Shown: positions 9,364 to 53,915, counted from the stretch's first letter. The stretch is 64,000 nt of DNA from Candidatus Stygibacter australis (GCA_030765845.1 JAVCDJ010000203.1:83947-147946); one strand, 5' to 3'. Translations and numbers: made by a program. The notes: generated by a model not told the origin, from the letters alone.

Positions 9364-9451
9364 TCAATACTCCTGAAATCTATTTAAACCCTTTACGAAG
9401 TAAATTCTATTTCCGGTCAAGAAATTTCCCCCTTGCCAGAAAGATCATCAG

Positions 9452-9508
9452 CAACTAAGTTAGATGTGCATCGCTGGTGTACCCACAAGTGAGGCGCAAA
9501 TAACGACC
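9452..9508 (+). repeat. Family-B intergenic repeat, copy B2 (diverged)
   Basis: CAACTAAGTTAGATGTGCATCGCTGGTGTACCCACAAGTGAGGCGCAAATAACGACC. Its CTTAG end faces a minus-strand TTGACC (9415-9420) upstream of the SBP-permease gene. Confidence 0.65.
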
Positions 9509-9759
9509 TCTATCAAGCGATTACTGAATAGAAAATATCATCTCATCAGCCTATGATAACCAGTTTTCTTCCCAAAATGTTAAAAACCGATAAAATCATA
9601 GAGTATCAATACACATGTTATAGTATAATAATAATGAATTATAAGCTCAAAACACTAAAATCAAAACCTAATCCATATTTTGCATAGATTTTGCTATACT
9701 TTCATAATATAACCACCTGATAATAAACTATTTAACAACTATAACCTGCCCTTAAACCA

Positions 9760-9811
9760 GAACAACAAGGCACAATCTAACATAAAAATGTCAGTACGTG
9801 CTTTGTTGTTC
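9760..9811 (+). repeat. Family-H hairpin element, copy H1
   Basis: GAACAACAAGGCAC-AATCTAACATAAAAATGTCAGTAC-GTGCTTTGTTGTTC, 233 nt upstream of nrdJ. Confidence 0.85.
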
Positions 9812-9940
9812 AATTTATAATCCTGTCAAAATATATGAAGATACGGGCGTACCACATGGGAAAATGTGAAATATAGGTTATATTGAGCGTGATGTCTGAT
9901 AATTTGTTATTATCGACTCGGAAAAAGGGAAAAAATTGGT

Positions 9941-9970
9941 TTGACACATGGACAGGCTGGCAGAATTTAA
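9941..9970 (+). promoter_or_regulatory. Possible nrdJ promoter (TTGACA at 9941-9946, weak A/T-rich -10 near 9964)
   Basis: Consensus -35 preceded by a GAAAAAGGGAAAAAAT purine motif. The -10 is poor, so this is tentative. Confidence 0.25.
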
Positions 9971-10043
9971 CCTGAAATCGCTTGGATAATGGGAGATCAA
10001 ATAGACATTTTATTAGCGATTTAAGATAAAATTAAAAGGCTGG

Positions 10044-12299
10044 ATGGCACTTATGAATATTAGCGAAAATGCACTTAAAGTATTGGAGAGAAGATATTTC
10101 CAAAAAAATGAAAATGGGGAATGTATTGAAAACTGGCAGGACATGGTTTTACGTGTTGCTTCCAATATAGCCGGTGGTGATAAAGAGAAAACTCAAAGGT
10201 ATATCAACCTGCTGGACTCTGGTTATTTTCTGCCAAATTCTCCTACTTTGATGAATGCTGGCAATGATTTGCAGCAGCTAAGTGCCTGCTTTGTTTTACC
10301 GGTTGAGGATAGTATTGAGGGTATTTTCGAAAGTGTAAAAAATGCTGCCTTGATCCATAAATCAGGAGGCGGGACTGGCTTCAGTTTCAGCCGTCTACGT
10401 GAGCAGAATGCCCGGGTGAGATCAACTAATGGAGTTTCTTCCGGACCGATAAGTTTTTTGAGTGTATTTAATGCTGCCACTGATGCTGTGAAGCAGGGCG
10501 GTACCCGCAGGGGTGCTAATATGGCAATTTTGAATGTTGACCATCCCGATATTCTGGAATTTATCACCTGTAAAGAAGATATCAATAATCTTACGAATTT
10601 CAATATTTCTGTGGGCATAACGGAAGAATTTATGCAGGCTGTGCATGATGATCAGGAATATCCTCTTGTTTCTCCCCATTCAGGCGAGATCACTCAGAAA
10701 ATAAAGGCGACGGAAGTATTTAATCTTATCGTGGAAATGGCACATAAGAATGGTGAACCGGGAATTGTGTTCATAGACCGCATTAATGACTATAATCCGA
10801 CTCCTCAGGTGGGAGCTATGGAATCTACTAATCCCTGCGGTGAGCAGCCGCTATTGCCTAATGAAGCCTGCAATCTGGGCTCGATGAATCTGGCACTTTT
10901 ATGGGAAGATAATGAATTCAACTGGGATAGATTGCAGCAGGTGGTATATGACAGTGTAGATTTTCTGGATGATGTGATAAATAGATCGCAGTTCCCTCTG
11001 CAAGCGATCGATTACACTGTGAAGCAAAACCGGAAAATCGGACTTGGCGTGATGGGCTGGGCTGATCTGCTTTATGAGATGAAAATTCCCTATAATTCAG
11101 ATGAAGCCACGCTTCTGGCAGCAAAGCTGATGGAATTTATCGATTATCACTCCAAGCTGAAATCAATCAAGCTGGCAGAGCAGCAGGGTTCTTTCCCTAA
11201 TTTTAAAGGCAGTATATACAGTCAGGGCACTTTGCATCGCAAGGGTGAACTGGATTGGGATATGTTGCGGAATGATATCAGCAGCAAGGGCATCAGAAAT
11301 GCTACCACCACTACGATAGCACCTACAGGAACTATCAGCATGATAGCTAATACTTCCAGCGGTGTGGAACCACAATTCTCACTGGTTTACGTTAAAAATG
11401 TGATGGATGGAGAAAAACTGCTCTATGTGAATCCGCACTTTGAGAAAGCTATGCATGATGCCGGATTATATTCCGAAGAAATGATGATAAAAGTGGCTGA
11501 AACTGGCTCTATCCAGGAGATGTCAAAGATTCCTGCCGAGATCAGAGAAGTATTTGTTACCTCGCATGATATTACTCCCGAATGGCATATCAGGATGCAG
11601 GCAGCCTTCCAGAAATTTGTGGATAATGCCGTATCCAAAACTATTAATTTCACTAATGAAGCTTCAGTTGAAGATATCCGCATTTCTTATGAACTGGCGC
11701 ATGAACTGGGCTGCAAAGGTGTAACCGTCTATCGTGACGGCAGCAGGCAAAACCAGGTGCTGAATGTGGGCTCTTCGATCAAGGAAGATAAGGAAGTGCC
11801 CTGCACTCAATTGAAACCACGCCAAAGACCGGAATTCACCCAGGGCATGACGCGTAAAATTGAAACCGGCTGTGGACATCTCTATGTGACTATTAATTAT
11901 GACAGCGAGGGACCTTTTGAATTATTTACCACCATGGGGAAAGTAGGTGGCTGTGCTTCTGCTCAATTGGAAGCGATAGCCCGTCTGGTGTCCCTGTGCC
12001 TGCGCTCAAATATAGATAGTGATGAGATAGCCCGTCAATTGAAAGCTATTCGTTGCCCTTCACCAATGTGGAATAAAGGCGAAATGGTTACCTCCTGCGC
12101 TGATGCCATAGCCAGATCATTAGAGAAATTCAGTCAAATAGAACCGGTAAATATAGCTGGCATGGAATCAAATACCCAGACAACGGCAAAGCCACGACCC
12201 AGAAAGAAAATGAGCGGAACCTGCCCCGAATGCGGCAGCACCATCCAACACGTGGAAGGATGCCTCACCTGCCCCAATTGCGGCTGGTCTAAATGCTAA
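10044..12299 (+). CDS. nrdJ: Class II (adenosylcobalamin-dependent) ribonucleoside-triphosphate/diphosphate reductase
   Basis: 751-aa ORF. Contains the active-site motif TNPCGEQPLLPNEACNLGSMNL, ATTTTIAPTGTIS, and a C-terminal Cys4 zinc ribbon (CPECG...CLTCPNCGWSKC). Confidence 0.9.
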   Translation: MALMNISENALKVLERRYFQKNENGECIENWQDMVLRVASNIAGGDKEKTQRYINLLDSGYFLPNSPTLMNAGNDLQQLSACFVLPVEDSIEGIFESVKNAALIHKSGGGTGFSFSRLREQNARVRSTNGVSSGPISFLSVFNAATDAVKQGGTRRGANMAILNVDHPDILEFITCKEDINNLTNFNISVGITEEFMQAVHDDQEYPLVSPHSGEITQKIKATEVFNLIVEMAHKNGEPGIVFIDRINDYNPTPQVGAMESTNPCGEQPLLPNEACNLGSMNLALLWEDNEFNWDRLQQVVYDSVDFLDDVINRSQFPLQAIDYTVKQNRKIGLGVMGWADLLYEMKIPYNSDEATLLAAKLMEFIDYHSKLKSIKLAEQQGSFPNFKGSIYSQGTLHRKGELDWDMLRNDISSKGIRNATTTTIAPTGTISMIANTSSGVEPQFSLVYVKNVMDGEKLLYVNPHFEKAMHDAGLYSEEMMIKVAETGSIQEMSKIPAEIREVFVTSHDITPEWHIRMQAAFQKFVDNAVSKTINFTNEASVEDIRISYELAHELGCKGVTVYRDGSRQNQVLNVGSSIKEDKEVPCTQLKPRQRPEFTQGMTRKIETGCGHLYVTINYDSEGPFELFTTMGKVGGCASAQLEAIARLVSLCLRSNIDSDEIARQLKAIRCPSPMWNKGEMVTSCADAIARSLEKFSQIEPVNIAGMESNTQTTAKPRPRKKMSGTCPECGSTIQHVEGCLTCPNCGWSKC

Positions 12300-12315
12300 A
12301 AGATTACTTTCAAAA

Positions 12316-12349
12316 TTATTAGCCACCTGAATATTCAGATGGCTAATAA
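12316..12349. terminator. Bidirectional hairpin terminator between convergent nrdJ and the 1510-aa gene
   Basis: TTATTAGCCA-cctgaatattcaga-TGGCTAATAA. The stem is a perfect 10 bp and the loop is itself palindromic. Confidence 0.6.
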
Positions 12350-12402
12350 GAATTTTATGAAATATCATTTAGGATAATACATCACTCAAAACATCTACGT
12401 CT

Positions 12403-15400
12403 TTATTTCAACAATAAACATCTTTTCACTGCTTCCGTTTTGCCATCTACATTAAGCCTGTAGAAATATACTCCGGAACCTGCTAATTTCCCGTTTTCTT
12501 CTTCTCCATTCCAGATAACAGAATGAATTCCTTTATCGAAATCACCGCTTAGAAGTTTTTTCACTTTTTGCCCTTTGATATTATAAATGCTAAACTCAAT
12601 TACACTATTCTCAGGTAATGAAAATGATATTGTTGTAGTTGGATTAAAAGGATTAGGGAAATTTTGAAAGAGTTCAATTCCCGTTACTTCGGGTGAATAT
12701 ATGCCCCCGTCTTTCGACTGGTTATTTAGTAAACTCCATAGACTCTGCTCTTTTTCCTTTGCCTGCTCAATACTGTTCAATTGTCTTTCTAAATTAGTAA
12801 AATTGATAGCAGCCCTTGTTCCTCCAGATGATGCTTCCAGATAGGTATATACAATATCAAGCTCAGTATAAATAGAATCAATGAAAGTCAATTCATCATC
12901 CAGCAAAACTTCATACTCAGTTATTGCAGACTGATAATCTCCCATAAGTCTATTGCAAAATGTATTTTCCAGATTGATTGTTTCTGATAATTTAGTTTCA
13001 GGATACTGAGCGGAAAGCTCAGAAAAATAATCCTGTAATTCGATATATTCAGACTCAGTATCAAGACAGTTTATTAACCTGTTCGCAGACCAAATTGCCT
13101 CTATATCATCTGGATTTTCAGCTATGCTTTGCATATAGTAATCTTTGGCTGTCTCATAATCACCCTCTGATTCTGCAATCAGACCCAGGCTAAACAATCC
13201 GTCTCCTGCCAATGGATCATAACCTACCCAGGGAGATGTGTGTACTGGAAGATAGTTTACCTGCCAGTTAGCAGGAAAAAATGAATCTTCTACATCATTC
13301 TCAATTGTTGTACCCCACCATAAATCACGGCAGTAATATTCCAGCGTTACTGCATCTTGATTATAAAATGAGTAGCTGTTACCGAATATTATATCGTTAC
13401 ATCTTTTATCTACTACCGGATATGATGTTCCGCTGATCTTTATCTCAGGATAATCAGTGCCATCGTAATGGGTATAACTGATCGTTGATTTTGTAACAAC
13501 CGGATTTGATCCTCGATTTGCAAGAATACCGGCATATTTATTAGCATAAATGGTATCATTCAGAACAACTGCAGAAGCGTTATAAAACCATAATCCATAA
13601 TCATTCCCGGTAAATTTACTATACTTGATCTCTGAACGATAAATCGGTTCATGACTGTTCATCAATAAAATTCCAAATAATCCACAATTATGAATATAAG
13701 AGTTATTAATCTGGTATCTTTCAGGTTTTTCCAGATATATACCCCGATCATTATACAGAAATTCACAATTATCAACTATGATTTCTCCCTTACTGTTCAA
13801 AGGGAATTCAGCATTCTGAAATTCACAATATTCCAATTCGGCTGATCCTATTTCAGTAATCTCGATCTTATTCCAGTTATTAGTCAGATATTTATCAAAT
13901 ACAATCACGTTTTCTTCATTACCTATTGCAGTTAATACTCCATCTACGATCAGATGAAAATCCTCTGCTAATTCTGGATGAGCACTTGCCAGGAATATAA
14001 TTTCTGCTCCTGTCGGAACATAAATCTCATCCTTTAATATTATCTCGCCGCAACCAAATTGAACTATATCCTGAATGATAATCCCATTAAATACCCCGCT
14101 ATGTATAGTTAAATCCTCCGTAAGCATGTTTCCTGCAACCAGATCTGAATAATCATAATTAACATAAAAATATTCATCATCATAAGCCAGATAAGATATG
14201 TTATCTTCGATAGTACCACGTTCCCCACCAGGTTCTGTTCCCGGCTGATATGTTCCGAATTCGGTCTTAGAATGCAAATTCTCAGGTTCCACTCCGCAAC
14301 GCAATATTCTATATTGCGTTCTGTCATTTTCTTCGGTTTTATGGGTTACATATAACTCCCCATTATCCCATTCTGCCATTACTTCTTCCGCTTCATAGTC
14401 AGAATCATATAGTTCTACAGCAGTAAACCGTGATAATTGATCTCGTGCCCTGATATAGTTATCTCCATTAATGATCAGTTTTCTGATATCAGTAAAGCTT
14501 GAATTTGCTTCCACTAAAAAGAAATCAGCCGATGTTACAAACTGTAAACTTATCTGTGTAAACTCAAATTGTGAGTCACCAGAATAAACTGCTGCGTAAG
14601 TATCATAATCATCGCTTGTATCCAGATCATATCGCACACCGTATCCATAACTATGATCAGCAATGAGTTCTATCGGATCTGCAATATCTTCTGATGGAAT
14701 CAATAGAGTAATGAATTGTTCATTGATCATATTTTTTGTTGTAATTCTCAATCGGCTGTGACTCGTATCATCACCATCCCAACCGGTTGGTAAACCATTA
14801 TAATATGCACCATAATTAATATCTTTGTCTTCATAATTAGTATGGAAATTATTCACAGCTCCCATTACCCCATGTAAAAATATATTATTTACAGAAGAAC
14901 AGAAATGAGATTCATGATCATTATCAAATGTTTCTTCAGACACTGGATTGAAATGTATCTGGTTTCTGTAATTGTTTTCTTCGCCTTCAGTATTATCTAC
15001 TCGGTCATAAATGATGTAATAGTGATCATCAATCATGTAAAAACCCCTTGAAACTATGCAAGGGTGTTCTGTACCGTACATATCGGGTTTTTTATTATCG
15101 TAATTCACACTAACTTTTAAGTGTTGGATTTCATCATTTGTGATCAAAAATTCTTTTTGAGCTGGATTCGGAATATCGTTAACGGTGTGGTATTCAAACC
15201 TGTTAAGATGTGATATCGGATCTTTTTTATTCAGATCTTGAATTGGATGTGCAAAGATTTCTTCTGCCGAATAGTAACACCATTCAGTTAAATCTGAGAA
15301 TTCACCTACATAAGTACTCCCTTCAATATCAGTACTATCTGGATTAATTATAATCAAATTATGAGCATAGGGAGATTCAAACCATTCCATTGTTCTACCC

Positions 15401-16935
15401 CACTGACTATAGGAAATACCATTATGCTCTAAAGTATTATACCAGGTTTTATATCCTAAATCAATAATAAGATACTCCCCTTTATAGAATAATTGGAAGT
15501 GGGTTTTATCGCTATTCCAATGATTATGATCAAAAGAATTCTCATGATTTATAGACATCCAAGGTACATCAAGTACTTTGTCATCATTGATTGTAATTAT
15601 ATTATTAGCAGTTGCCTGAGGACGCAATATTGTCAACTCCCCATCTGAATATGAACCGGTTTCCAGATATGAAGGAAAATAATTATCTGTTGTGATAGGC
15701 ATTGAACTAACTGACTCTGGATCATAACACATAACAACATCAAAACTTTCTGTATTAGCTTCATTTGTCTCTAATGGATAGTCTCCATTATTATTTTCTT
15801 TTGCCCTGTGAACATACCACCTGATAGACTTTCTTAATTCAAGATTATTAGTATTGTTATAATAATACGGTAATAATCCCTTTTCGATATTATTGTTATC
15901 ATTAGGTGGATATTCATCTGCTCCTGCACTTCTATGCCTGAAATCATCTTCCTGGGTTATATGACAAAACTGTGGATCATTACGCATCATTATCTGAGTC
16001 ATCCAACCATTCATAAAATCCGTATCCCACATATTAAATTCAGTTACCCTTTTTAATGCTGTAAAAAATAAGGGAGTAAGATATATTGCTCGATTAGCGT
16101 AAGTATATCCACCAATATACATACCGGAATTTGTTACGCCATAATCCTGATAGCCATGTAAATCTGTTCCTTCAGGATAAAAATCTGTTGAGAAAAACTG
16201 CTCCATCACAAAATCTTTTAATCTGGTTCCCGGTGTTAAATCTTCCCCCGCTACAAGACAGCAATATCCCAGACCACTCAGATTTATCAAACGAAAACTG
16301 GATGCTCCTATTTCAGGTAAGCGACTATAATAATCATAACAATAACCTGGATTAGTAGTCCAAAGATCACTATTATAGATATCATCTATTGCCCAATCTA
16401 TCAGATCATCTAATTTGGCTTGTAATAAAGCTTGCTGTCCAGGGCTCATATAATAATATGCCATATCACACATGAATGCGATAAAATTGAGACCATAAGA
16501 CATATCCAGGGCTCTCGCATAAAAATCATCTGCTTGAGGTCCATCAGGATTATATATAGCCAGTTCAAATCCTTCCCAGTCAAATGAATCCTCTGACTCT
16601 ACTAATAAAAAGAATATAACCTCATTCATAAAATCTACATTATTATGAATTAATCCATTATATGCTTTCCTGCAATTGTACAATAGATCGAAAGGATCTG
16701 CATAATAACGATCACCTAATTCCTCAATTTCTTCAGGTGTTAACTCTCGTGTTTCTCTTGTTTCTTGATAATACAACCAAATTAACGGATCTTCAGTTTC
16801 GGATGGATCTGCTAAACATACATTCCTAATACCTTGTAATGTCGAAGATGAGATAGTAAATGTCTGATCAACGGCTGTTAGTGTAAAAGTAATTACACAA
16901 CAGATTACTACAAGCAAAGACTTTTTTGCTTTCAT
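12403..16935 (-). CDS. Very large secreted protein: heparinase II/III-like region (tentative), parallel beta-helix repeats, TPR-like segment, T9SS/FlgD-Ig-type C-terminal domain
   Basis: 1510-aa ORF with a signal peptide. Beta-helix-like repeats (NNSYIHNCGLFGILLMNS...FTGNDYGLWFYNAS). The C-terminus is FPNPFNPTTTISFSLP...GSGVYFYRLNVDGKTEAVKRCLLLK. Confidence 0.7.
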   Translation of the reverse strand: MKAKKSLLVVICCVITFTLTAVDQTFTISSSTLQGIRNVCLADPSETEDPLIWLYYQETRETRELTPEEIEELGDRYYADPFDLLYNCRKAYNGLIHNNVDFMNEVIFFLLVESEDSFDWEGFELAIYNPDGPQADDFYARALDMSYGLNFIAFMCDMAYYYMSPGQQALLQAKLDDLIDWAIDDIYNSDLWTTNPGYCYDYYSRLPEIGASSFRLINLSGLGYCCLVAGEDLTPGTRLKDFVMEQFFSTDFYPEGTDLHGYQDYGVTNSGMYIGGYTYANRAIYLTPLFFTALKRVTEFNMWDTDFMNGWMTQIMMRNDPQFCHITQEDDFRHRSAGADEYPPNDNNNIEKGLLPYYYNNTNNLELRKSIRWYVHRAKENNNGDYPLETNEANTESFDVVMCYDPESVSSMPITTDNYFPSYLETGSYSDGELTILRPQATANNIITINDDKVLDVPWMSINHENSFDHNHWNSDKTHFQLFYKGEYLIIDLGYKTWYNTLEHNGISYSQWGRTMEWFESPYAHNLIIINPDSTDIEGSTYVGEFSDLTEWCYYSAEEIFAHPIQDLNKKDPISHLNRFEYHTVNDIPNPAQKEFLITNDEIQHLKVSVNYDNKKPDMYGTEHPCIVSRGFYMIDDHYYIIYDRVDNTEGEENNYRNQIHFNPVSEETFDNDHESHFCSSVNNIFLHGVMGAVNNFHTNYEDKDINYGAYYNGLPTGWDGDDTSHSRLRITTKNMINEQFITLLIPSEDIADPIELIADHSYGYGVRYDLDTSDDYDTYAAVYSGDSQFEFTQISLQFVTSADFFLVEANSSFTDIRKLIINGDNYIRARDQLSRFTAVELYDSDYEAEEVMAEWDNGELYVTHKTEENDRTQYRILRCGVEPENLHSKTEFGTYQPGTEPGGERGTIEDNISYLAYDDEYFYVNYDYSDLVAGNMLTEDLTIHSGVFNGIIIQDIVQFGCGEIILKDEIYVPTGAEIIFLASAHPELAEDFHLIVDGVLTAIGNEENVIVFDKYLTNNWNKIEITEIGSAELEYCEFQNAEFPLNSKGEIIVDNCEFLYNDRGIYLEKPERYQINNSYIHNCGLFGILLMNSHEPIYRSEIKYSKFTGNDYGLWFYNASAVVLNDTIYANKYAGILANRGSNPVVTKSTISYTHYDGTDYPEIKISGTSYPVVDKRCNDIIFGNSYSFYNQDAVTLEYYCRDLWWGTTIENDVEDSFFPANWQVNYLPVHTSPWVGYDPLAGDGLFSLGLIAESEGDYETAKDYYMQSIAENPDDIEAIWSANRLINCLDTESEYIELQDYFSELSAQYPETKLSETINLENTFCNRLMGDYQSAITEYEVLLDDELTFIDSIYTELDIVYTYLEASSGGTRAAINFTNLERQLNSIEQAKEKEQSLWSLLNNQSKDGGIYSPEVTGIELFQNFPNPFNPTTTISFSLPENSVIEFSIYNIKGQKVKKLLSGDFDKGIHSVIWNGEEENGKLAGSGVYFYRLNVDGKTEAVKRCLLLK

Positions 16936-16944
16936 TTTTTCCTC

Positions 16945-18438
16945 CTATTTAATTAACAGCATTTTATTTGCTGCTTTTTTTTCTCCGTTTGTCATCAGTT
17001 GGTAATAATATACCCCGCTGCCAACTAATGCACCTGCTTGATTTTTCCCATCCCAAATGATTTCTCCTGATTTACCGTTTATTACTCCTTCGTGTGCTAT
17101 TTTTAATTCTCTAACTTTTTGCCCTTTAATATTTGATATTTCAATAATTGTGTTTTCTAAATTGCTATCTATTTCATACTTAATTGTGGTTATTGGATTG
17201 AAAGGATTAGGATAATTACTTAGTCTTTGTTTAATACCGGGTAATTCATTATTATCTACTATCAAATTTCCTTCTTCATCAACTCTTAGTAAAACAAATT
17301 CAGGAAAGAGACATTGTCTGTCCGTTGTTCCGCAATAAATAATATCTCCGTTTATATGTTCAAAGCCTTTCTTATCTTCCTTGCCAATCCAATCAGGATA
17401 GGCAGGACTATTTTCCAGATAATTCCTGCTCCACAATACTTCTCCATCAAATGTTACTTTATGAATTTCTCCTTCTTCTGCGTTGAAAGTTATTAATATA
17501 TTACTGTCGTTAAGTTTAAGAAGTCTTGATGTATTTGATTGATCATAAAATGGTGTCAAAATATCATATTCTTCTAACAGCATTCCAGAAATATTATACT
17601 TTAACAAAAAACCTCGACCTCGTACATAATCCGATTGCCAAGAGAAAGTAAATAAAGTATCTTCATCATACTCTAGCAGACTTGAAAACATTGCGTTTTC
17701 TCGCGTTTTTGTCCATAGAGTGTCTCCTTCTGAATTAAATTTCATCAATGTTCCCCAAAAGGGATTATATGTCTTGAAGCCGCATGTCAAAAATCCACCA
17801 TCTGATGTTTGAATTATTGTATTCATTTCAGGTGGATATTCTCCATTTATCATCAGGTCATAGCCACATTTATACCAGATGATATTACCATCAAAATCTG
17901 TTTTCATTATAGAAGGTGAGGGATAATTATCTGCCATACCTGCCATTATCAAGCCATCTTCTATTATCTGCATGGAATTTATTGTAACACGTAGTGAATC
18001 AATATCCCAATAATTATGTGTTGAAATCAAACCACAATTCTCATCAAGAATATAGAGCACTCTCGGGAAGGTGTATCCGCCTCCTCTTCCTCCTATAGCA
18101 TAATACCTGTCCACTTCGTTAGATACTAATGAACCGAAATAATTACTGAATATTGAAGCATCCTGAACCCGCCATTCCATTTCACCTTCTTCCGATATTT
18201 TCCAGAACATACTCTGTGGTTCTGAATAAAACTCATAGCCAGGTGTTACATAAGCATTTAATAAAAAGCCTCCACCAATTGCTGGTATCACATTGCAACT
18301 CCCGTCACGATAGGAATAAGCAAAATATTCTTCAAAAAGATCACGATACGGATAGCTGTTAAAAAAAGTCGGCTCAGCTTCTAAGAATAAAGTAACACAA
18401 AGTATTATAATTATAATAATAATGATATTTCTGGGCAT
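16945..18438 (-). CDS. Secreted protein (beta-propeller-like, function unknown) with T9SS/FlgD-Ig-type C-terminal domain
   Basis: The ORF track starts at 18483. I prefer ATG 18438 (GGAGGA 5 nt upstream; the product starts MPRNIIIIIIIILCVTLF). The C-terminus is YPNPFNPITTIKYEI...GSGVYYYQLMTNGEKKAANKMLLIK. Confidence 0.7.
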   Translation of the reverse strand: MPRNIIIIIIIILCVTLFLEAEPTFFNSYPYRDLFEEYFAYSYRDGSCNVIPAIGGGFLLNAYVTPGYEFYSEPQSMFWKISEEGEMEWRVQDASIFSNYFGSLVSNEVDRYYAIGGRGGGYTFPRVLYILDENCGLISTHNYWDIDSLRVTINSMQIIEDGLIMAGMADNYPSPSIMKTDFDGNIIWYKCGYDLMINGEYPPEMNTIIQTSDGGFLTCGFKTYNPFWGTLMKFNSEGDTLWTKTRENAMFSSLLEYDEDTLFTFSWQSDYVRGRGFLLKYNISGMLLEEYDILTPFYDQSNTSRLLKLNDSNILITFNAEEGEIHKVTFDGEVLWSRNYLENSPAYPDWIGKEDKKGFEHINGDIIYCGTTDRQCLFPEFVLLRVDEEGNLIVDNNELPGIKQRLSNYPNPFNPITTIKYEIDSNLENTIIEISNIKGQKVRELKIAHEGVINGKSGEIIWDGKNQAGALVGSGVYYYQLMTNGEKKAANKMLLIK

Positions 18439-18523
18439 AATGTTCCTCCTATTCATTTTGTTATTCATCATATCATAGTTCATTTGTTCACAATCTCCAT
18501 TTTCTTGTCAACATTTATTCAAC

Positions 18524-18580
18524 CTTACTAAGCAGGAGTTTTGCACAGTACCCCGGACAATGCTTCTGGCGACAGTTGAT
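18524..18580 (+). repeat. Family-C repeat (diverged relative of family B), copy C1
   Basis: CTTACTAAGCAGGAGTTTTGCACAGTACCCCGGACAATGCTTCTGGCGACAGTTGAT, about 80% identical to 38332-38390. The CTTAGTAAG end is 12 nt from the minus-strand TTGACA (18506-18511). Confidence 0.7.
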
Positions 18581-18590
18581 TTCCCATTCT

Positions 18591-18623
18591 GTCCATATTA
18601 TCCATTAAGTCCATCACGTCCAT
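18591..18623 (-). repeat. 9-bp-phased TGGAC array, copy D1
   Basis: Minus strand reads ATGGACgtgATGGACttaATGGATaatATGGAC. It lies upstream of C1 and the TTGACA box of the 16945-18438 gene. Confidence 0.85.
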
Positions 18624-18703
18624 AATCCAGTCTAGTAAATAATTCCCTTGACCTGAATATGATTCATTATTTATTTTAAATTAGACCTTAAGGAGGTGTA
18701 TCC

Positions 18704-19480
18704 ATGAAAATAAAGATGATATTATCCCTTATTTTATTTTTGCTTTTGATAATACCCCTGGTATCAGAAGAATTAGATGATCAGGAACTCTTCAAAAAGG
18801 TCGAAAAACTTGCTTTATCAGGTGATATTGAAGCTCAATATAACACGGGAAGATGCTATGAAGAAGGATTCGGAACCGAAAAGAATGGTGCTAAAGCCAT
18901 GAGCTGGTATAATACAGCAGCACAGCAGGGTCACATGGAAGCACAATTTCGGTTAGCTTGTCTTTACGATTTTGGAGAAAATGTACTTCATAATAACGTG
19001 CAAGCAGTTAAATGGTACACAATGGCAGCAGAGCAGGGGAAGATGGAAGCCCAATATAATCTGGCAATATGTTATGAAGATGGAAATGGTGTGGATCAGG
19101 ATGATGAAGCAGCTCTTAAATAGTACACAAGGGCGGCAGAACAGGGAGATGTCGATGCTCAGTTCATTGTGGGAGATTGTTACGATTTTGGCGAATTAGT
19201 TGCGAGAGATGCCGCAGAAGCATTTAAGTGGTACAAATTGGCAGGAGATCAGGGACATCCCGATGCTCTTTACAGTCTGGCAATATGTTATGAAGATGGA
19301 AATGGAGTAGAGCAGGATTTTCAAGAGGCATATAAATACTACTTGTTAACCTGCAATTTCGCTTCAGGAGGATTGTACGAGTCAGCAGAAGCAAATCTAA
19401 GCCTGGCAGCAGAACAACTGACCGCATCTCAGATAGAAGCCGCCACTGACGAAGTAAACAGTATTTTGGGTAACAGATAA
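18704..19480 (+). pseudogene. Sel1-repeat (TPR-like) secreted protein interrupted by an in-frame TAG at 19121-19123
   Basis: ORFs 18704-19123 and 19169-19480 are in the same frame. The TAG sits where every other repeat has Trp: AMSWYNTAAQQG, AVKWYTMAAEQG, ALK*YTRAAEQG, AFKWYKLAGDQG. Confidence 0.75.
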
Positions 19481-19531
19481 GGAATCGGTAGTACATATTT
19501 TTTGCTTTAAATATCAGAGAATATCTTCGCA

Positions 19532-20542
19532 TTAAATTATTCTCTTGAGAACAGGGATCTGCTTGATCAGCCAGGAGGATGCCAGGGAAAGGCAAAATAC
19601 AGCGATGGCAGTGAGTGGTATTGAAAAAGCAGGATTCATTATTGATACACCCAATCCCTTGAGATTAATAAGTTTCAGGAAAATCGGATGGATGAGATAA
19701 ACTCCTAGTGTAAGGCTCGCAATCTGGTGGATATTCGGTGAATTGAAAACCTTTATATGATAATATTTAAACCACATCATAATACAGGCAGCCATAATGA
19801 CCACAGCAAAACTAAAATATCCCTGGAAGTATATCCCTGATGAAGCATGCCGTATTTGCGCACTAAAATAATAGCCCGTAGCAATTATAACCCCGCTGCA
19901 AAAGAAAATAGCAAGTAAGGTGATCTTTGAGGGTTTATATTGAGTGCTTCTGATCAGGTAACCCAGAAAATAGTAGGGAATAAATGGGATAAATTTAGTG
20001 ATAAATAATGGAGGTATCCCGGGAAGAAGTTCTGTATATAAAAAACTGAAAGTGCTGATCAAGAACATAATCAGTACTAAAATTTGAAGTTCTTTGTGAG
20101 AAGAATTCTTGATTATCAGTCTGAAAAATGGGGTAAATAAATACAAACCGATGATCATGTATAAGAACCAGAGGTGGAAATGTGGTTTTCCTTCCAGCAG
20201 GTTAAGAAATATTTGCTGTTTTGATGTTTGAATTCCGTAAGTAGCAGCATAAAAATAATCCAGACAAAGATAGATAGCAGACCAGGCAAGAAGGGGTATA
20301 AATATCCTTGCAAACCTTTTTCTATAAAACAATCGAAAGGGTTCATTTTTACCTGGATCAAGCAGTAAAGCACCACTGATCATCACAAATACAGGAATTG
20401 CCCATCTTACCAGAGAGTTATAAATATTTCCTGACCACCAGTATTCTGAGCCGATCATGTTTGCAGACTGCACCAAAATTGCAGAATGCAAAACTACTAT
20501 TGCCAGAGTAGCAGATATTCTTGCCTTATCTATCCAGATCAT
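19532..20542 (-). CDS. Acyltransferase-3 family membrane protein (O-acyltransferase)
   Basis: About 10 hydrophobic helices; N-terminus IDKARISATLAIVVLHS. I favour ATG 20542, which overlaps the upstream stop as TAATG. The ORF track's first ATG is 20560. Confidence 0.65.
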   Translation of the reverse strand: MIWIDKARISATLAIVVLHSAILVQSANMIGSEYWWSGNIYNSLVRWAIPVFVMISGALLLDPGKNEPFRLFYRKRFARIFIPLLAWSAIYLCLDYFYAATYGIQTSKQQIFLNLLEGKPHFHLWFLYMIIGLYLFTPFFRLIIKNSSHKELQILVLIMFLISTFSFLYTELLPGIPPLFITKFIPFIPYYFLGYLIRSTQYKPSKITLLAIFFCSGVIIATGYYFSAQIRHASSGIYFQGYFSFAVVIMAACIMMWFKYYHIKVFNSPNIHQIASLTLGVYLIHPIFLKLINLKGLGVSIMNPAFSIPLTAIAVFCLSLASSWLIKQIPVLKRII

Positions 20543-24711: not shown

Positions 24712-24764
24712 GAACAACTTAGCATAATCTAACAAAAAAATGTCAATATGTGCTTTGTTGTTCC
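24712..24764 (+). repeat. Family-H hairpin element, copy H2
   Basis: GAACAACTTAGCAT-AATCTAACAAAAAAATGTCAATA-TGTGCTTTGTTGTTCC, followed by TCCTGATAATTTTCC. Confidence 0.85.
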
Positions 24765-24875
24765 TCCTGATAATTTTCCGGAACTGGCACCTCTCGACTT
24801 CTACTAATACTACACTTTGTTAAAATAGATGATAAATTAAAGTGTTGGAATAAAGAAGATAGATTTACACTTTCT

Positions 24876-25240
24876 TCACGTATCCCCCCCCCCAAAAATT
24901 ACAAATACACCTCAATTAACCATATTTAACATAGTGAATTATGAAATTAGAAGCAAAAATAGAAATGTAGATCATTTAACTACGAAGATGAATTTTATGA
25001 TAGAAATAATAATATATCTGGTACAAAACTTAAGTAATAAAATGATATACAGGAATTTGGCAAAAGAATTGAATAAAAATTTGGCATATAGGTTATCGAA
25101 TATCGTATCAGAACTTTTTAGGGGATTCTTAGTTAGACCAAGAAATAGACATAAGGGTAAGTACAAGAAATATTATCTGGAAAAGCTACAGTATAGGCTG
25201 GTGTTAAATGATAATTAAAAAAGGGGGGGGGGATGCGTGA
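24876..25240. repeat. 365-bp element bounded by 18-bp inverted repeats TCACG(T/C)AT-C10 / G10-ATGCGTGA
   Basis: Left arm 24876-24893 (C10 at 24884-24893). Right arm 25223-25240 (G10 at 25223-25232). One mismatch. The 329-bp interior is extremely AT-rich. Possible MITE or invertible segment. Confidence 0.8.
24934..25218 (+). CDS. Hypothetical 94-aa Lys/Asn/Arg-rich protein inside the IR-bounded element (may be non-coding)
   Basis: ORF track only. GTG start, no convincing SD, very low GC. Confidence 0.2.
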   Translation: MNYEIRSKNRNVDHLTTKMNFMIEIIIYLVQNLSNKMIYRNLAKELNKNLAYRLSNIVSELFRGFLVRPRNRHKGKYKKYYLEKLQYRLVLNDN

Positions 25241-25305
25241 TCTAATATTTTAGTTGACAGATATAAGCATTTTCTTTAAAAGAAATCCAAATATAGGAGG
25301 TGCAT

Positions 25306-25830
25306 ATGAGAAAGCTGATCATTTTTGGATTATTATTATTTTTAACAGCAAGTGCTTATGCATTTGAAAAGGGAACTGTCAATGTCGGCGGAAACGTAAG
25401 TTATTCAAGTATAAAAGCTAATTCAGATGCTGATGCTTATACAATATTTTTGTTCTCTTCACAAGCAGGTTATTTTGTTAGAGATAATATCGCTCTTGAT
25501 ATCGGATTTGATTTATCAGTTGCGGATTATGATGGTAGTGAGACTTCATTGATATTTGATATTGGGAGTCGTTACTTTATTGGTGACATATTCTATTCTG
25601 GATTTAAGGTTATGGTACAAACGTATAGTGGTGGTGGATTTAAACTTTCACAGAATTTTGTACAATTAGGTGCTGGATATTTAGTTCCTTTAGTAAAAAA
25701 TGTTGTATATCTTAATCTTGATGTCAATTATACTATGGGTATTGGAGACTATGGTGGAGATATATCCGGGACAAATGAAGAGTCAAGGCTCAATTTTGGA
25801 GCAGGAATCGAGTATTTTATTAAGAAATAA
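25306..25830 (+). CDS. Small outer-membrane beta-barrel protein
   Basis: ATG 25306 lies 5 nt after AGGAGG (the track starts at GTG 25300). Signal peptide MRKLIIFGLLLFLTASAYA. Alternating hydrophobic beta-strand pattern. Confidence 0.7.
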   Translation: MRKLIIFGLLLFLTASAYAFEKGTVNVGGNVSYSSIKANSDADAYTIFLFSSQAGYFVRDNIALDIGFDLSVADYDGSETSLIFDIGSRYFIGDIFYSGFKVMVQTYSGGGFKLSQNFVQLGAGYLVPLVKNVVYLNLDVNYTMGIGDYGGDISGTNEESRLNFGAGIEYFIKK

Positions 25831-25851
25831 AGATTTTTTGTATAATGTAAA

Positions 25852-25874
25852 AGCTCTTCATTCGAAGGGTTTTT
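25852..25874 (+). terminator. Rho-independent terminator candidate 1 after the OMP gene
   Basis: CTCTTC-attc-GAAGGG followed by TTTTT. Confidence 0.5.
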
Positions 25875-25895
25875 ATTATATGTAAATAATTAAAA

Positions 25896-25924
25896 GATCC
25901 GCTCTTAATGGGCGGTTCTTTTTT
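25896..25924 (+). terminator. Rho-independent terminator candidate 2
   Basis: GATCCGC-tcttaatgg-GCGGTTC followed by TTTTTT. Confidence 0.55.
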
Positions 25925-26003
25925 ATAGGTTTTATACGTCCTATATGACCTATAATATAACCACTTATCTAATCAAACTCACCTATAGATCAGTGAGTGA
26001 GAA

Positions 26004-26055
26004 GAACAACAAAACACGCCCCATAAATAAATGTCAGTATGTGCTTCGTTGTTCC
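26004..26055 (+). repeat. Family-H hairpin element, copy H3 (most diverged)
   Basis: GAACAACAAAACAC-GCCCCATAAATAAATGTCAGTAT-GTGCTTCGTTGTTCC, followed by TCCTGATAATTTCC. Confidence 0.75.
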
Positions 26056-26272
26056 TCCTGATAATTTCCAAGAGGCTGAGAAATATGTGATCAGAGATAA
26101 TATGTTGACAAATAGAAGGTTAAGAGAAAAGGTGAATCATTGATGTAGAGATCAGTGAGAAAGGTGAAATGGAAAAAATCTGCAAAAGAGAAAAACAGAT
26201 TATATTATCTGCAGCAGAAAGCAGAAAAGGTGAGAGAAGAAGTTTAAAAGATGGTAATGAAAGAGAAAAAGC

Positions 26273-38261: not shown

Positions 38262-38331
38262 GGTGGAAATCTGATTCGTTTTTACTACAAATAAATAAGC
38301 ACTACGTGCTAAAATAAACCACATTTCACCC

Positions 38332-39237: not shown

Positions 39238-39290
39238 GGAACAACAAAGAACTATCTAACATAAAAATGTCACTATGTGCTAAGTTGTTC
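39238..39290 (+). repeat. Family-H hairpin element, copy H4
   Basis: GGAACAACAAAGAAC-TATCTAACATAAAAATGTCACTAT-GTGCTAAGTTGTTC. Confidence 0.85.
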
Positions 39291-42346: not shown

Positions 42347-44086
42347 ATGATAAGCAAAATCATTGTAGAGAATTTTAAAGGATTTGAGAGAATTGAATTA
42401 GATTTAGATAAATCAGTCCTTTTCATAGGACCAAATAATTCTGGTAAAACAACAGCCTTACAAGCCTTTGCCCTTTGGGATATTGGTTTAAAAAACTGGT
42501 TAATTAAAAAAGGAAATAAAAATCCAACCCAGCAAAAATCAGGCATTGCCATCAATCGCAAAGACTTAATTAATCTGCCAGTTCCTCAGTCAAAACTTTT
42601 ATGGAATGACCTGCATGTGAGAATGCAGAATAACACTGGTAAACAAATTACAAGTAATATCATGATCAATATATTAGTAGAAGGAAACACAAATGATAAA
42701 TACTGGCAGGTGGGACTGGAATTTGATTACTTCAATGAAGAATCACTTTATTGCCGCCCGTTGAGGAAAAGCAATCAAAAGAATTTTGTACGCTATTCAA
42801 TAGATAATTCTATTACCTATCCGATTTTTGCCTACTTACCTCCTATGTCTGGATTAACTATCAATGAATTTCAGAAACAACCAGGAGAGATTAACTATTT
42901 AATTGGTCAAGGTCAAACAGCTCAAGTACTTAGAAATCTCTGTTATAATTTATTCACTAACAAAACTGAGAAATGGTATAAGCTAAAAAAACATGTCAAA
43001 GAACTATTTGGCATAGATATTTTAGAGCCTACCTGCAATAATATTACTAATGAATTAGAATTGCAATATGATGATAAATCCAAGATCAGACTTGATATTT
43101 CTTGTGCAGGAAGAGGAGTGCAGCAAGTGCTATTGTTGCTCTCATATATTTATTTTAATCCGGGAAGCATATTATTACTTGATGAGCCTGATGCCCACCT
43201 TGAAGTCCTCAAACAACGAGAAATTTATAATTTACTGCTTGATATCGCTTTGGAAAATAAGTCGCAAATTATTGCTGCCAGTCACTCGGAGGTCTTACTG
43301 AATGAAGCTGCTCAATCTTCACAGGTAATCGCTTTCCTGGGCAAACCACATGTAATTAATAATAAGTCACAGGTGGCAAAATCACTAACGACAATTGGCT
43401 GGGAAAATTATTACCAGGCAGAACAAAAAGGTTGGATATTATACCTTGAGAATAATACAGACCTCAAAATTTTGCAGGCATTTGCCCAGAAATTAGATCA
43501 TCCTGCTTTGGTCTATTTAAGAAATCCTTTTGTGAAATATGTAGAAACGAATATTCCTCAAAAAGCCAGAAATCATTTTTATGCTATTAAAGAAGCTAAA
43601 GATAATCTTAATGGTATTGCTGTTTTTGACCATCTGGAAAAGCAGTTGAATAGTGAAGGAGTCTTAGTTGAACGCATGTGGGCACAAAATGAAATTGAAA
43701 ATTATATAACATTTCTGGAACCACTTCGAGAGTTCATTAAATCACAATTTACCATCCAGACAGACAGTTCTCAATTAGATTTTATGAATAAAATCAATAT
43801 AGATAGACCGTTGCAAGTTCTTGATGAAACTATTAAAGAAATATCGTCAGCTTTGAAAATTTTAGGTGAAGATAACGGTGATCTTTGGGGTTCAAAGATA
43901 AAAGCTTCAGAGAAAGTCCTGGATAAAATATTTAAAAATTTCTCTCAGAAAATGAATATCCCCTTAATTCTCAGGAAAAGCGATTATTATCTGCTTGTGA
44001 AATTTCTTCCTCTGGAATTGATAGATAAAGAAATCATTCAAATACTGGATATCATTAATGAAGTAGCAATCAAATCACAAAGTTGA
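42347..44086 (+). CDS. Fused ABC/AAA_15-type ATPase + TOPRIM-like (DUF4435/OLD-type) domain protein; OLD-family / merged PARIS-like candidate defence gene
   Basis: 579 aa. Walker A GPNNSGKTT, Walker B/D-loop ILLLDEPDAHLE, H-loop ASHSE. The C-terminal 250 aa carry ILYLENNTDLKILQAF, GIAVFDHLEK and WAQNEIENYI, patterns I associate with OLD/DUF4435 Toprim domains. Monocistronic and AT-rich. Confidence 0.6.
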   Translation: MISKIIVENFKGFERIELDLDKSVLFIGPNNSGKTTALQAFALWDIGLKNWLIKKGNKNPTQQKSGIAINRKDLINLPVPQSKLLWNDLHVRMQNNTGKQITSNIMINILVEGNTNDKYWQVGLEFDYFNEESLYCRPLRKSNQKNFVRYSIDNSITYPIFAYLPPMSGLTINEFQKQPGEINYLIGQGQTAQVLRNLCYNLFTNKTEKWYKLKKHVKELFGIDILEPTCNNITNELELQYDDKSKIRLDISCAGRGVQQVLLLLSYIYFNPGSILLLDEPDAHLEVLKQREIYNLLLDIALENKSQIIAASHSEVLLNEAAQSSQVIAFLGKPHVINNKSQVAKSLTTIGWENYYQAEQKGWILYLENNTDLKILQAFAQKLDHPALVYLRNPFVKYVETNIPQKARNHFYAIKEAKDNLNGIAVFDHLEKQLNSEGVLVERMWAQNEIENYITFLEPLREFIKSQFTIQTDSSQLDFMNKINIDRPLQVLDETIKEISSALKILGEDNGDLWGSKIKASEKVLDKIFKNFSQKMNIPLILRKSDYYLLVKFLPLELIDKEIIQILDIINEVAIKSQS

Positions 44087-52266: not shown

Positions 52267-52320
52267 GGAACAACTTAGCACTATCTAACAAAAAAATGTC
52301 ACTATGTGCTTTGTTGTTCC
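52267..52320 (+). repeat. Family-H hairpin element, copy H5
   Basis: GGAACAACTTAGCAC-TATCTAACAAAAAAATGTCACTAT-GTGCTTTGTTGTTCC. Confidence 0.85.
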
Positions 52321-52538: not shown

Positions 52539-53915
52539 ATGATAATTAGTTTTTCTGTCAGCAATTTTCTTTCCATAAAGGAAGAGCAGGTTTTAAGTTT
52601 TGAGGCAAGCAGTGATGAGAGTTATAATGAATACTTTATCCGGGAAATCGGCAAATACAGGCTTCTTAAGATGGGAATCATTTATGGGGCAAATGCCTCT
52701 GGCAAGACCAATATTTTAAAAGCACTCGATGTTCTAAGACAGCTTGTGACAAGATCACGTGATGCAGATAAGGATATATATTACACTCCGTTTTTATTTG
52801 ATGATGAATATAAGACGGGAAACTGCAAAATGAAGCTTGAGTTTCTGGTAGGGGATGAGGGTAAATATGTAAAACACATTTATGAACTGGAATTTAATGC
52901 CAAAGAAATAGTAAATGAGTCTTTGAAATATTATCCAGGCCAGCAGCCGGCTATGATTTATAATAGGGTAAAAAATACAAATCTGGAGAGGGGGTACACG
53001 TTAAAATTTAGTAATGGTTCAAAACCTAAATCAGAGGAGCAGAATATTCTGGAAAGCAGTACTTTGATCAATAATACAATATTATCAGCTTTTAATAAAG
53101 TGAATCCCATAATTCCCAAAACGAAACGTGTGAGAAAATGGTTTGATTACTACATGACACGGTTGTTATCACAGGAAAATAAAGCTGATGAGAAAACAGC
53201 TGATGTTTTTTTTAAGAAATCCATACAGAGACAGGGAATTTTAAATGAATTTATAAAAAAAGCTGACTATAATGTTTCTAAATTTATTATTTCAGAAGGA
53301 AATTGGAAATTTACAGAAGATAGAAAAGATTTTGCATTAAAATTTGGTGAATTAATTTATTCCTTAGATGAGTCAAACTCTGCGATGTCAAATTGGAAAA
53401 ACCAAATTGATAAAATAACTCAATTACCAATTACAAAAAAAGAACTTAGTCATGTTTACAAGGTTAAGGGAGAATTAAAGGAGGGTAATTTACCATATCT
53501 GCTGGAGTCAAATGGGACTAAACGGAGTTTTGAATTGGCAGCGCCACTTATAGAGAATTTAATGAAGGGTAAAATAATGATATTAGATGAGATAGAATCT
53601 TCACTTCATTTTGATTTAGTGAAATATATCATATTAGTATTTCTGGCAAATTCTGAGAATTCGCAGATGCTTTTTACTACCCATAATCTTCTTTTGCTGG
53701 ACTGGGATATCTTACGTCATGATGTTATCTGGTTTACAGAGAAGAAAGAAGATGGCTCAACAGACTTATATTCTCTGGCAGACTTTAAGGAATTGAATCG
53801 TAGTAATATATTGAAAAGATACTTAAGTGGTCAGTTTGGAGCAAAACCAGACATCTATGATTATAAGCTGAATCTGCAGGATCTGAAAGAGGATAGCAGT
53901 GGCAAGAAAAATTAA
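52539..53915 (+). CDS. AAA_21/ABC-type ATPase (AbiLi/RloA-like)
   Basis: 458 aa. Walker A GANASGKTN, Walker B IMILDEIESSLH, H-loop TTHN. Overlaps the downstream RloB-like gene by 17 nt. Confidence 0.7.
   Translation: MIISFSVSNFLSIKEEQVLSFEASSDESYNEYFIREIGKYRLLKMGIIYGANASGKTNILKALDVLRQLVTRSRDADKDIYYTPFLFDDEYKTGNCKMKLEFLVGDEGKYVKHIYELEFNAKEIVNESLKYYPGQQPAMIYNRVKNTNLERGYTLKFSNGSKPKSEEQNILESSTLINNTILSAFNKVNPIIPKTKRVRKWFDYYMTRLLSQENKADEKTADVFFKKSIQRQGILNEFIKKADYNVSKFIISEGNWKFTEDRKDFALKFGELIYSLDESNSAMSNWKNQIDKITQLPITKKELSHVYKVKGELKEGNLPYLLESNGTKRSFELAAPLIENLMKGKIMILDEIESSLHFDLVKYIILVFLANSENSQMLFTTHNLLLLDWDILRHDVIWFTEKKEDGSTDLYSLADFKELNRSNILKRYLSGQFGAKPDIYDYKLNLQDLKEDSSGKKN

Follow-up and report, generated by a model that had tools for sequence, protein, structure and literature searches.

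A conserved hairpin repeat in the intergenic spacers of Candidatus Stygibacter, a candidate family of extragenic palindromic DNA repeats

The stretch of DNA analysed here (the window, 64,000 nt) comes from Candidatus Stygibacter australis, an uncultivated Antarctic-lake bacterium of the phylum Cloacimonadota, a candidate phylum of the Fibrobacteres-Chlorobi-Bacteroidetes (FCB) group; the NrdJ it encodes is 100% identical to the NCBI protein of the MAG (metagenome-assembled genome). It carries a hairpin element that an earlier note, made from the sequence alone, had described as present five times, always in + orientation. The copies lie in spacers next to genes as different as nrdJ, recG and a dockerin-domain gene. 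They are listed below with a related mini-palindrome; L numbers designate the other loci used for comparison, and ORF stands for open reading frame.

9755-9816 (core 9760-9811), + strand: copy 1, arms fully paired, V1 loop, -24.7 kcal/mol, z -7.6, 76.4 bits; between a divergent ABC-transporter gene (-) and nrdJ (+), with orthologous copies in L001 and L021
24707-24768 (core 24712-24763), + strand: copy 2, TT/TT bubble, 70.7 bits; in a divergent region, upstream of recG (-)
25998-26059 (core 26004-26054), + strand: copy 3, degenerate, z -2.3, 42.6 bits
39234-39295 (core 39239-39290), + strand: copy 4, AA/AA bubble and an A-G mismatch, 71.9 bits; between a 184-aa ORF and the dockerin-domain gene, with orthologues in L013 and L076
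52263-52324 (core 52268-52319), + strand: copy 5, the best copy, 82 bits; between a Big_1 surface-protein gene and an AAA_21/RloB pair, with an orthologue in L063
38298-38310, no strand assigned: mini-palindrome AGCAC-TAC-GTGCT, the sole AGCAC-N3-GTGCT in the window

The number and common orientation of the copies were confirmed. The pattern GAACAAC-N30-50-GTTGTTC matched the window only at 9760, 24712, 26004, 39239 and 52268, and both an nhmmer profile and a covariance model built from 82 copies recovered the five copies and nothing else in the 64 kb. The 19-nt loop core ATCTAACAWAAAAATGTCA has four exact matches against 0.18 expected, a number reached in none of 100 shuffles. On the + strand, covariance-model scores were 71-82 bits for copies 1, 2, 4 and 5 and 42.6 bits for the degenerate copy 3; the same five places scored 33-50 bits on the - strand, below the + strand scores. 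Folding of copies 1, 2 and 5 gave -20 to -25 kcal/mol (z -5.4 to -7.6 compared to shuffled sequence) and was weaker for copies 3 and 4 (z -2.3 and -1.8). Copy 3 is damaged by a diverged left loop half, a 1-nt deletion and two arm mismatches. Finer details reported for the window copies were found as described: the TT/TT and AA/AA mismatches, the GGAGGA/TCCTCC arm extensions, ATAATATAACCAC common to the upstream sides of copies 1 and 3, TCCTGATAATTT common to copies 2 and 3 on the downstream side, and the motifs GGAGGAACAAC and GTTGTTCCTCC. The mini-palindrome at 38298 is also there as claimed. It corresponds to the inner stem with the final three bases of the loop, without the outer arms, and may be a loop-deleted relic or a product of chance.

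The anatomy of the hairpin was established from a gap-free alignment of 82 non-redundant copies. The unit is longer than the 52 nt first delimited, a conserved A-T pair four positions beyond each arm bringing it to ~62 nt. From the outside in, it is composed of a variable extension of 3-4 bp, the arm GAACAAC/GTTGTTC, a 2-nt W/W bubble, the arm AGCAC/GTGCT and an asymmetric 24-nt centre, that is, three nested inverted repeats over 62 nt around a 6-nt centre. Both arm segments are near-invariant, with 94% of cells paired over 13 core pairs; together with the partly paired extension, whose outer 3-4 pairs are variable and paired about half the time, they constitute terminal inverted repeats. The bubble holds A or T only. 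For its column pair 19/56 we counted A-T 46, T-T 17, T-A 12 and A-A 7, with a weak link to pairing (Fisher P = 0.006 and 0.09). In the centre, the right half, AAAATGTCA-N-TAY, is invariant, in part because the search pattern used to collect the copies required it. The left half falls into three classes, WATCTMACA (42 copies), RTACYCACA (21) and AATATAACA (13), to which a rare, fully palindromic version, RTAGTGACA (3 copies), has to be added. Variation across the 82 copies lies in this left loop half, the WW bubble and the outer extension. The earlier statement that the loop is better conserved than the stem is true of the five window copies; it does not extend to the family, where the arms and the right loop half are both near-invariant. 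Extended self-complementarity of the flanks was no better than that of cross-pairings (17.5 vs 17.7).

Outside the window, the right half of the element was used to scan one genome per species (185,579 species). This gave 16 loci, all in one metagenome-assembled genome (MAG) of Ca. S. frigidus. Viral contigs contained zero matches to the hairpin, and plasmids no related sequence. Metagenomes of the Joint Genome Institute (JGI) yielded at least 109 stretches and, among the matches listed, almost all came from one sample series. After clustering by flanks, the collection comprises at least 134 instances at no fewer than 91 distinct genomic sites in Stygibacter MAG and metagenome contigs. The local density is 5 copies per 64 kb, nearest neighbouring copies being at least 1.3 kb apart. 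Two MAG copies are located exactly at contig ends, as would be expected of a repeat that breaks assemblies. The sole paper on the genus Stygibacter makes no mention of repeats or transposases, and its supplements carry no transposase or integrase annotations.

At some loci, ORFs of 83-120 aa read through the repeat (L052 3423-3674, L078 6454-6798, L081 2-364, L089 907-1167) and form a small 'protein family' of 35-54% identity. They are almost certainly spurious, created by the repeat and its flanks, and are a trap for automatic annotation.

Gene context was counted over the listed sites (at least 91) with a crude ORF caller. All real copies among them are intergenic, the two exceptions being artefacts. 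At the 70 classifiable sites, the strands of the genes upstream and downstream of the oriented element were +/+ in 25, -/+ in 22, -/- in 15 and +/- in 8. The downstream gene was co-oriented in 49 of 77 cases, and the one clear trend was a deficit in convergent spacers (divergent 22 vs convergent 8). Contexts being so mixed over at least 91 sites, the rule proposed from the window, that the element is always + and upstream of + strand genes, does not generalise: it is a local accident or a regional effect. The neighbouring genes are ordinary, with no enriched gene family; frequencies of two-component genes (4.8% of neighbours vs 5.0% of non-neighbours) and of type IX secretion system (T9SS) cargo genes (9.1% vs 5.2%) were not convincing. 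At one conserved promoter, the element is found in related genomes 54, 216 or 417 nt upstream and in either orientation. The median distance to the element from the stop codon of a gene ending towards it is ~160 nt, again in both orientations. The hairpin has no consistent relation to its neighbouring genes.

The orientation of neighbouring copies relative to each other is less mixed. Eight of eight adjacent pairs on the same contig are co-oriented (the window's four, L081, L121, L075 and Ga0207996_1000202). Two of these are local duplications, and the remaining six of six give P ~0.02, which is suggestive.

The spacer holding copy 1 was compared with the nrdJ loci of three related Cloacimonadota genomes (NrdJ 84%, 79% and 75% identical), which serve as outgroups. 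Over their 57.7 kb, zero copies were found by nhmmer or by the covariance model.

9430-9925, no strand assigned: Stygibacter-specific spacer holding copy 1, ~490 nt, boundaries approximate, from the alignment with the outgroups

Two outgroups keep the divergent ABC transporter/nrdJ pair, with a spacer of 317 nt (L126) and 211 nt (L127) vs 680 nt in the window. Conserved blocks flank the extra DNA, CCGGTCAAGA on the left, which contains a TTGACC-type -35 for the transporter gene, and AAAATTGGTTTGACA with the nrdJ leader on the right; the outgroups retain these blocks alone. Copy 1, inside ~490 nt of extra DNA between conserved divergent promoters, is therefore outside the nrdJ leader. By this alignment, it is a lineage-specific insertion into an untranscribed spacer between two promoters. 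A role as 5' regulatory element of nrdJ, considered as a candidate, is contradicted by its location in lineage-specific DNA upstream of the conserved nrdJ promoter. The comparison shows that the hairpin colonised Stygibacter intergenic spacers once this lineage had separated from relatives whose NrdJ is 75-84% identical. The outgroup recG locus (L128) is not syntenic and hence uninformative for copies 2 and 3.

Two further observations concern the nrdJ locus. The nrdJ promoter and leader (window 9925-10043: AAAATTGGTTTGACA ... GAATTTAACCTGAAATCGC ... AAAGGCTGGATGG) are conserved at 75-84% NrdJ identity (L126, L127, L128). This region gave no Rfam match and no cobalamin riboswitch, and is a candidate for a leader not yet characterised or for a control region of the NrdR type. 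A second palindromic repeat, unrelated to the first, reads (aaaa)CCTTGCGAATGGTGYnnRCACCTTCGCAA(tGGTTGA). It occurs in Stygibacter loci (L020 642, L023 2408, L051 4023, L074 166, L100 317) and in an outgroup genome (L126 9802-9830), where it fills the nrdJ divergent spacer, and it displays apparently compensatory inner-stem changes (GGTGC..GCACC vs GGTGT..ACACC).

Once in place, the copies have persisted. Orthologous-site copies were found for four of the five window copies, in contigs 9-12% diverged. In 37 orthologous pairs, the element is 91% identical, whereas its two flanks, taken over 100 nt each, reach 80% and 76%. The proposal of a recently spread element is contradicted by these orthologues in ~10% diverged genomes and by the better conservation of the elements than of their flanks; the copies are instead old, vertically inherited and more conserved than the adjacent non-coding DNA. 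Something keeps the hairpin intact, be it selection, gene conversion or continued protein recognition.

Comparison of related loci also revealed rearrangements at the hairpins. L075 and L069 share a collinear gene-side flank and both arms, while the 24-nt centre is reverse-complemented, an inversion by exchange between the arms. Such a hairpin centre found both ways between identical arms, at a homologous site, is like the flip-flop inversions of plastid genomes and parvoviral inverted terminal repeats; unlike these systems, the flip is rare here (none among the 41 orthologous pairs that could be aligned over both flanks) and concerns a dispersed bacterial repeat. The second case is the 1.29 kb bracketed by copies 2 and 3, which contains the following features:

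24764-26003, + strand: segment between copies 2 and 3, with an orphan gene of 174-176 aa at 25300-25830 and an AT-rich stretch
25899-25925, + strand: canonical intrinsic terminator of the orphan gene, GC stem and T-run, 78 nt before copy 3
25924-25990, no strand assigned: TATAGG/CCTATA module adjoining copy 3, at 25924, 25940, 25949 and 25982

L072 (contig Ga0307991_1000564) is without the segment and carries a single element between the same outer flanks. The orphan ORF at 25300-25830 has no homologue outside S. australis. Either the segment was deleted between direct copies, or an insertion duplicated the element. The duplication extends over ~20 nt of flank, which makes homologous exchange likelier than a site-specific one. 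In L121, an extra gene is surrounded in a similar way by a duplication that covers the element and 150 nt. Elements also coincide with synteny breaks; L068 and L122, for instance, carry different subfamilies at the same breakpoint. Homology limited to the left flank was commoner than homology limited to the right one (24 vs 7 pairs), most of the left-only pairs examined being diverged flanks. With one in-situ inversion and one 1.29-kb gain or loss, the hairpin arms act as recombination substrates.

Within the same segment, a C10 (24884-24893) and a G10 (25222-25231) in inverted arrangement bracket ~330 nt of very AT-rich sequence. The stretch 24884-25231, just upstream of the orphan gene, holds a doubtful 94-aa GTG ORF and resembles either a small insertion ending in homopolymers or a tract prone to slippage. 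A larger difference was seen at 12297-19533, where 7.2 kb of the window (two large secreted proteins of a recurrent surface-protein family, a Sel1-repeat protein and small ORFs) are replaced by ~345 nt in the sister contig L021 (8836-9181); no hairpin copy lies at its borders.

The hairpin is usually set in a mosaic of other short repeat modules. Around 89 sites, TATAGG is enriched from +50 to +150 and CCTATA from -100 to 0, at a rate 10-20 times the background, and further motifs at roughly symmetric positions are TTTCAC upstream and GTGAAA downstream. Tandem-like repeats TATAGGNCTTATA (e.g. tataggtcttatatgtcctataggtc) were seen around most copies (window 25924-25990, 39327 and 39423; L048, L034, L105, L011, L020). 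Subfamily-specific flanks extend ~35 nt upstream and ~200 nt downstream. In subfamilies A and B, conserved patches, TATAAT-like boxes among them, are spread over ~300 nt; subfamily A occurs in no preferred orientation. These 300-nt units have no second conserved hairpin.

Signs of a classical mobile element were sought around the copies. No target-site duplication (TSD) was found with k = 3-8 and boundary offsets of 0-39 on each side of 83 copies, the best P being 7e-5 among 8,000 tests. No parent insertion sequence (IS) with matching ends was present in the window or the loci, nor was there a plasmid match. Recurrent protein families near the copies, considered as possible transposases, were ordinary paralogues. 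The earlier idea of a miniature inverted-repeat transposable element (MITE) consequently fails in its classical form, as there is no TSD at any offset. The hairpin is like the Correia, ERIC/IRU and RUP elements in being non-coding and intergenic, in both orientations, with terminal inverted repeats, long-hairpin folding and subfamilies, and in being absent from the same spacer in related taxa. Unlike these MITEs it has neither TSD nor a parent IS in the window or loci, its core is far below their 100-150 bp, and the whole palindrome is conserved, not the termini alone.

A derivative of the IS200/IS605 family of the type of the palindrome-associated transposable elements (PATEs), also put forward earlier, did not survive either. 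PATEs carry two different subterminal hairpins, at the left and right ends (LE/RE), in direct orientation and with a 5' target tetranucleotide; the Stygibacter element is a single near-symmetric hairpin, with no TnpA-like ORF near any copy. What it does share with IS200/IS605 ends is an imperfect hairpin with unpaired bases and no target duplication. IS200/IS605 function is read on one strand, and a strand-specific behaviour of this type could explain the co-orientation of neighbouring copies. Unlike in this family, neither TnpA nor TnpB was found near the copies, in the window ORFs or, with approximate queries, in the surrounding 964 kb.

The closest likeness is to the repetitive extragenic palindromic (REP) sequences of Proteobacteria, their hairpin-forming doublets (REPINs) and the bacterial interspersed mosaic elements (BIMEs). 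As these, the hairpin is a short imperfect palindrome, strictly extragenic, in tens to hundreds of copies per genome and of lineage-specific sequence; it is inherited at orthologous sites, conserved, devoid of TSD and set in mosaics with short motifs, and it breaks short-read assemblies and marks recombination points. Unlike them, the hairpin measures 52-62 nt vs 20-40 nt for REP units, and has a conserved asymmetric 24-nt centre. Its copies are single, whereas REPINs are inverted pairs or clusters; the hairpin could itself be taken for a doublet of a 25-nt unit, but neither half is a palindrome in its own right. About a third of the copies lie between divergent promoters, whereas REPs favour the 3' ends of transcription units. 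REPs are associated with REP-associated tyrosine transposases (RAYTs), encoded by a Y1-HUH gene of the PF01797 type that is typically flanked by the repeats; no RAYT gene was found in the window ORFs or, with approximate queries, in the 964 kb around the copies, and the host belongs to an FCB-group candidate phylum and not to Proteobacteria. On balance we consider it somewhat more probable than not that the hairpin represents a new, previously undescribed family of extragenic palindromic DNA repeats, genus-restricted, high-copy and akin to REP/BIME elements (or to a TSD-less MITE).

Such an element would work as DNA, extruded either as a cruciform or, in single-stranded DNA, as a hairpin. Its invariant right half, AAAATGTCA-N-TAY-GTGCT-WW-GTTGTTC, would be read by a trans-acting protein, which would have copied the element or would still maintain it. 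The most likely candidate, by a guess, is a hairpin-specific HUH/Y1 (RAYT-like) enzyme. We propose this class because it leaves no target duplication and works on a single strand. The first property fits the lack of target duplication at the copies, which would suit either HUH-type or recombinational spread, and the second would explain why neighbouring copies are co-oriented.

Several points weigh against a REP/BIME-like repeat spread by such an enzyme. The window ORFs include no transposase, HUH enzyme, recombinase or integrase, and the 964 kb around the copies gave no significant tblastn or phmmer match to IS608 TnpA or RAYT, the query sequences being approximate. No clean empty site with exact insertion boundaries was seen among 125 loci, which was to be expected, every locus having been fetched for containing a copy; L078 vs L090, considered as an empty site, proved to be a synteny break. 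S. australis and the S. frigidus-like contigs show no presence difference except at copies 2/3, so that current mobility is unproven. The excess of conservation over the flanks could just as well be due to a host function, and in subfamily B seven of seven units face the start of the downstream gene, which hints that some units acquired, or always had, a directional function. The part played by the search pattern in the right-half invariance is to be counted here too. Gene strand fully accounts for the GC skew of the loci (slope 0.105, intercept -0.002 +/- 0.009), therefore no replication-strand signal could be extracted from it. There are no DnaA boxes at the window's skew switch at ~24 kb; if this gene-orientation switch were an origin, copy 1 would violate a replichore rule. 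Finally, 53 of 67 intervals between a gene end and the element are without a canonical terminator in a crude scan, which leaves room for a role at RNA 3' ends.

A function at the RNA level is the first alternative. The near-symmetric hairpin would act, in either orientation, as a terminator lacking a U-tract or as a protector of 3' ends against exonucleases, 3'-end protection being a secondary role of E. coli REP sequences. The stem would be very stable as RNA, at the -20 to -25 kcal/mol given above, and lies at the same median ~160 nt from stop codons in both orientations. Selection on an RNA helix was not apparent, however. At the gathering threshold of Rfam, only tRNA-Leu was found in the window, and with E <= 10, over the whole window and a 201-nt slice, nothing credible covered the element; the Rfam check called for previously has thus been run, and the hairpin matches no known RNA family. 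The covariation score is 0.098 vs 0.085 in shuffles, most pairs being invariant, and stem mismatches are equally often G-T (47) and A-C (42), therefore neither strand is favoured as RNA. On these three counts, no Rfam match, weak covariation and no wobble strand bias, the earlier view of a dispersed repeat and not of a selected RNA helix stands, as does its statement that the copies are not terminators: neither strand has a T-run, and two of the five window copies and 22 of the 70 classifiable sites lie between divergent genes. The lack of terminators before the element in most intervals has its counterpart in the 14 of 67 gene-end intervals (copy 3 and 13 others) where a canonical terminator precedes it. 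The terminator at 25899-25925, the only one from the scan near copies 2 and 3, indicates that the organism uses ordinary terminators, with copy 3 sitting behind one; copy 1 lies outside both transcription units, between two conserved promoters. Some copies are therefore beyond the reach of flanking transcripts, between conserved divergent promoters or behind canonical terminators. The conservation of the element above its flanks could be accounted for by an RNA function, but a purely structural role has no need of a conserved asymmetric centre. We judge this alternative unlikely, though less so than the others below.

A double-stranded DNA site for a host protein (nucleoid or architectural protein, global regulator, promoter insulator), the nested repeats being those of a multimeric binder, is a rather poor second. 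It would account for the invariant arms and right half-centre, the conservation above flanks and the near-symmetric accessory motifs CCTATA/TATAGG and TTTCAC/GTGAAA. Three nested repeats over 62 nt with a 6-nt centre are nevertheless the signature of an extruded hairpin, unlike half-sites on a helix face. Enrichment in promoter-containing spacers (divergent 22 vs convergent 8) would also fit, but there is no regulon-like gene set, position and orientation vary at the same promoter in related genomes, and close outgroups have these genes and promoters but not the element.

The bracketing of a gene by copies 2 and 3 raises the question of cassette movement. In its boldest form, which we regard as a long shot, the hairpin would be the folded-strand site of a single-strand DNA recombinase or transposase of Cloacimonadota moving short gene segments from hairpin to hairpin, a dispersed, array-less analogue of attC cassette exchange. 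The enzyme would also copy the hairpin, the segment with the orphan gene, now between copies 2 and 3, would have been moved in this way, and co-orientation would reflect strand-specific action at replication forks. Equally improbable, or a shade more so, is the wider class of cassette-type sites (attC or a dispersed analogue) at which a recombinase inserts or excises gene segments on the folded strand. The hairpin is like attC in being imperfect, with paired outer and inner boxes, an unpaired spacer or central bubble and AAC...GTT ends, and in having one gene-bearing segment bracketed by two co-oriented copies; neighbours on the same strand would be expected, and the sister genome has a single copy and no segment. 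But GAACAAC/GTTGTTC fits only 5 of 7 positions of the attC boxes RYYYAAC/GTTRRRY, and the attC spacer is of 5 nt with extrahelical bases, whereas the Stygibacter bubble is of 2 nt and the gap-free alignment of 82 copies means that there are no bulged bases. The centre of attC is variable; here the right half-centre is invariant. There are no arrays and no intI or other integrase in the window, where copies are 1.3-15 kb apart with nrdJ, recG, tRNA-Leu and porV, housekeeping genes among them, in between. L121 provides a second case of element-plus-flank duplication around an extra gene, yet in both examples 20-150 nt of ordinary flank are duplicated, unlike in attC exchange, which points to homologous recombination or duplication. 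The excess of left-only flank homology (24 vs 7) is likewise weakened by the diverged flanks that make up most of the pairs examined.

Least probable of all is that the hairpin, at least in the 300-nt units, forms the main stem of a family of small RNA genes or 5' leaders: the ~300-nt conserved patches with TATAAT-like boxes shared by A and B and the constant facing of subfamily B towards the downstream gene are offset by the lack of consensus RNA structure or covariation beyond the hairpin in these units, of any orientation preference in subfamily A, of an Rfam match, and of consistent -35/-10 pairs at the hairpin units, a sigma-70 promoter scan around copies 2 and 3 giving fewer matches than shuffles.

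Two other features of the window were recorded. Separate AAA_21/AAA_15 (AbiEii-type ATPase) genes lie at 42347-44086 and 52539-54513; the latter is followed by an RloB-like gene, which suggests a defence pair of the OLD/abortive infection (Abi) type, and copy 5 is 219 nt upstream of the pair. At 61388-61740, within a Lamin-tail-domain ORF (60782-63163), a cluster of DnaA-box-like 9-mers occupies 350 nt. It holds four exact TTATCCACA, three of them on the - strand (61423, 61720, 61732), plus one-mismatch variants, where ~0.5 exact boxes are expected window-wide; the local gene orientation is not origin-like.

As an extragenic palindromic DNA repeat, the hairpin is of an ordinary kind, though its host is unusual; it is worth recording and not surprising. 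In practice, the repeat breaks MAG assemblies, and annotation can be misled where it overlaps spurious ORFs. For Cloacimonadota, in which no extragenic palindromic repeats had been described, it provides a well-defined family, and it marks intergenic expansion in one genus. In Antarctic-lake populations it can serve as a marker and is likely to drive micro-rearrangement. Discovery of an enzyme dedicated to binding the hairpin would extend REP/RAYT-like associations between host and repeat well beyond Proteobacteria.

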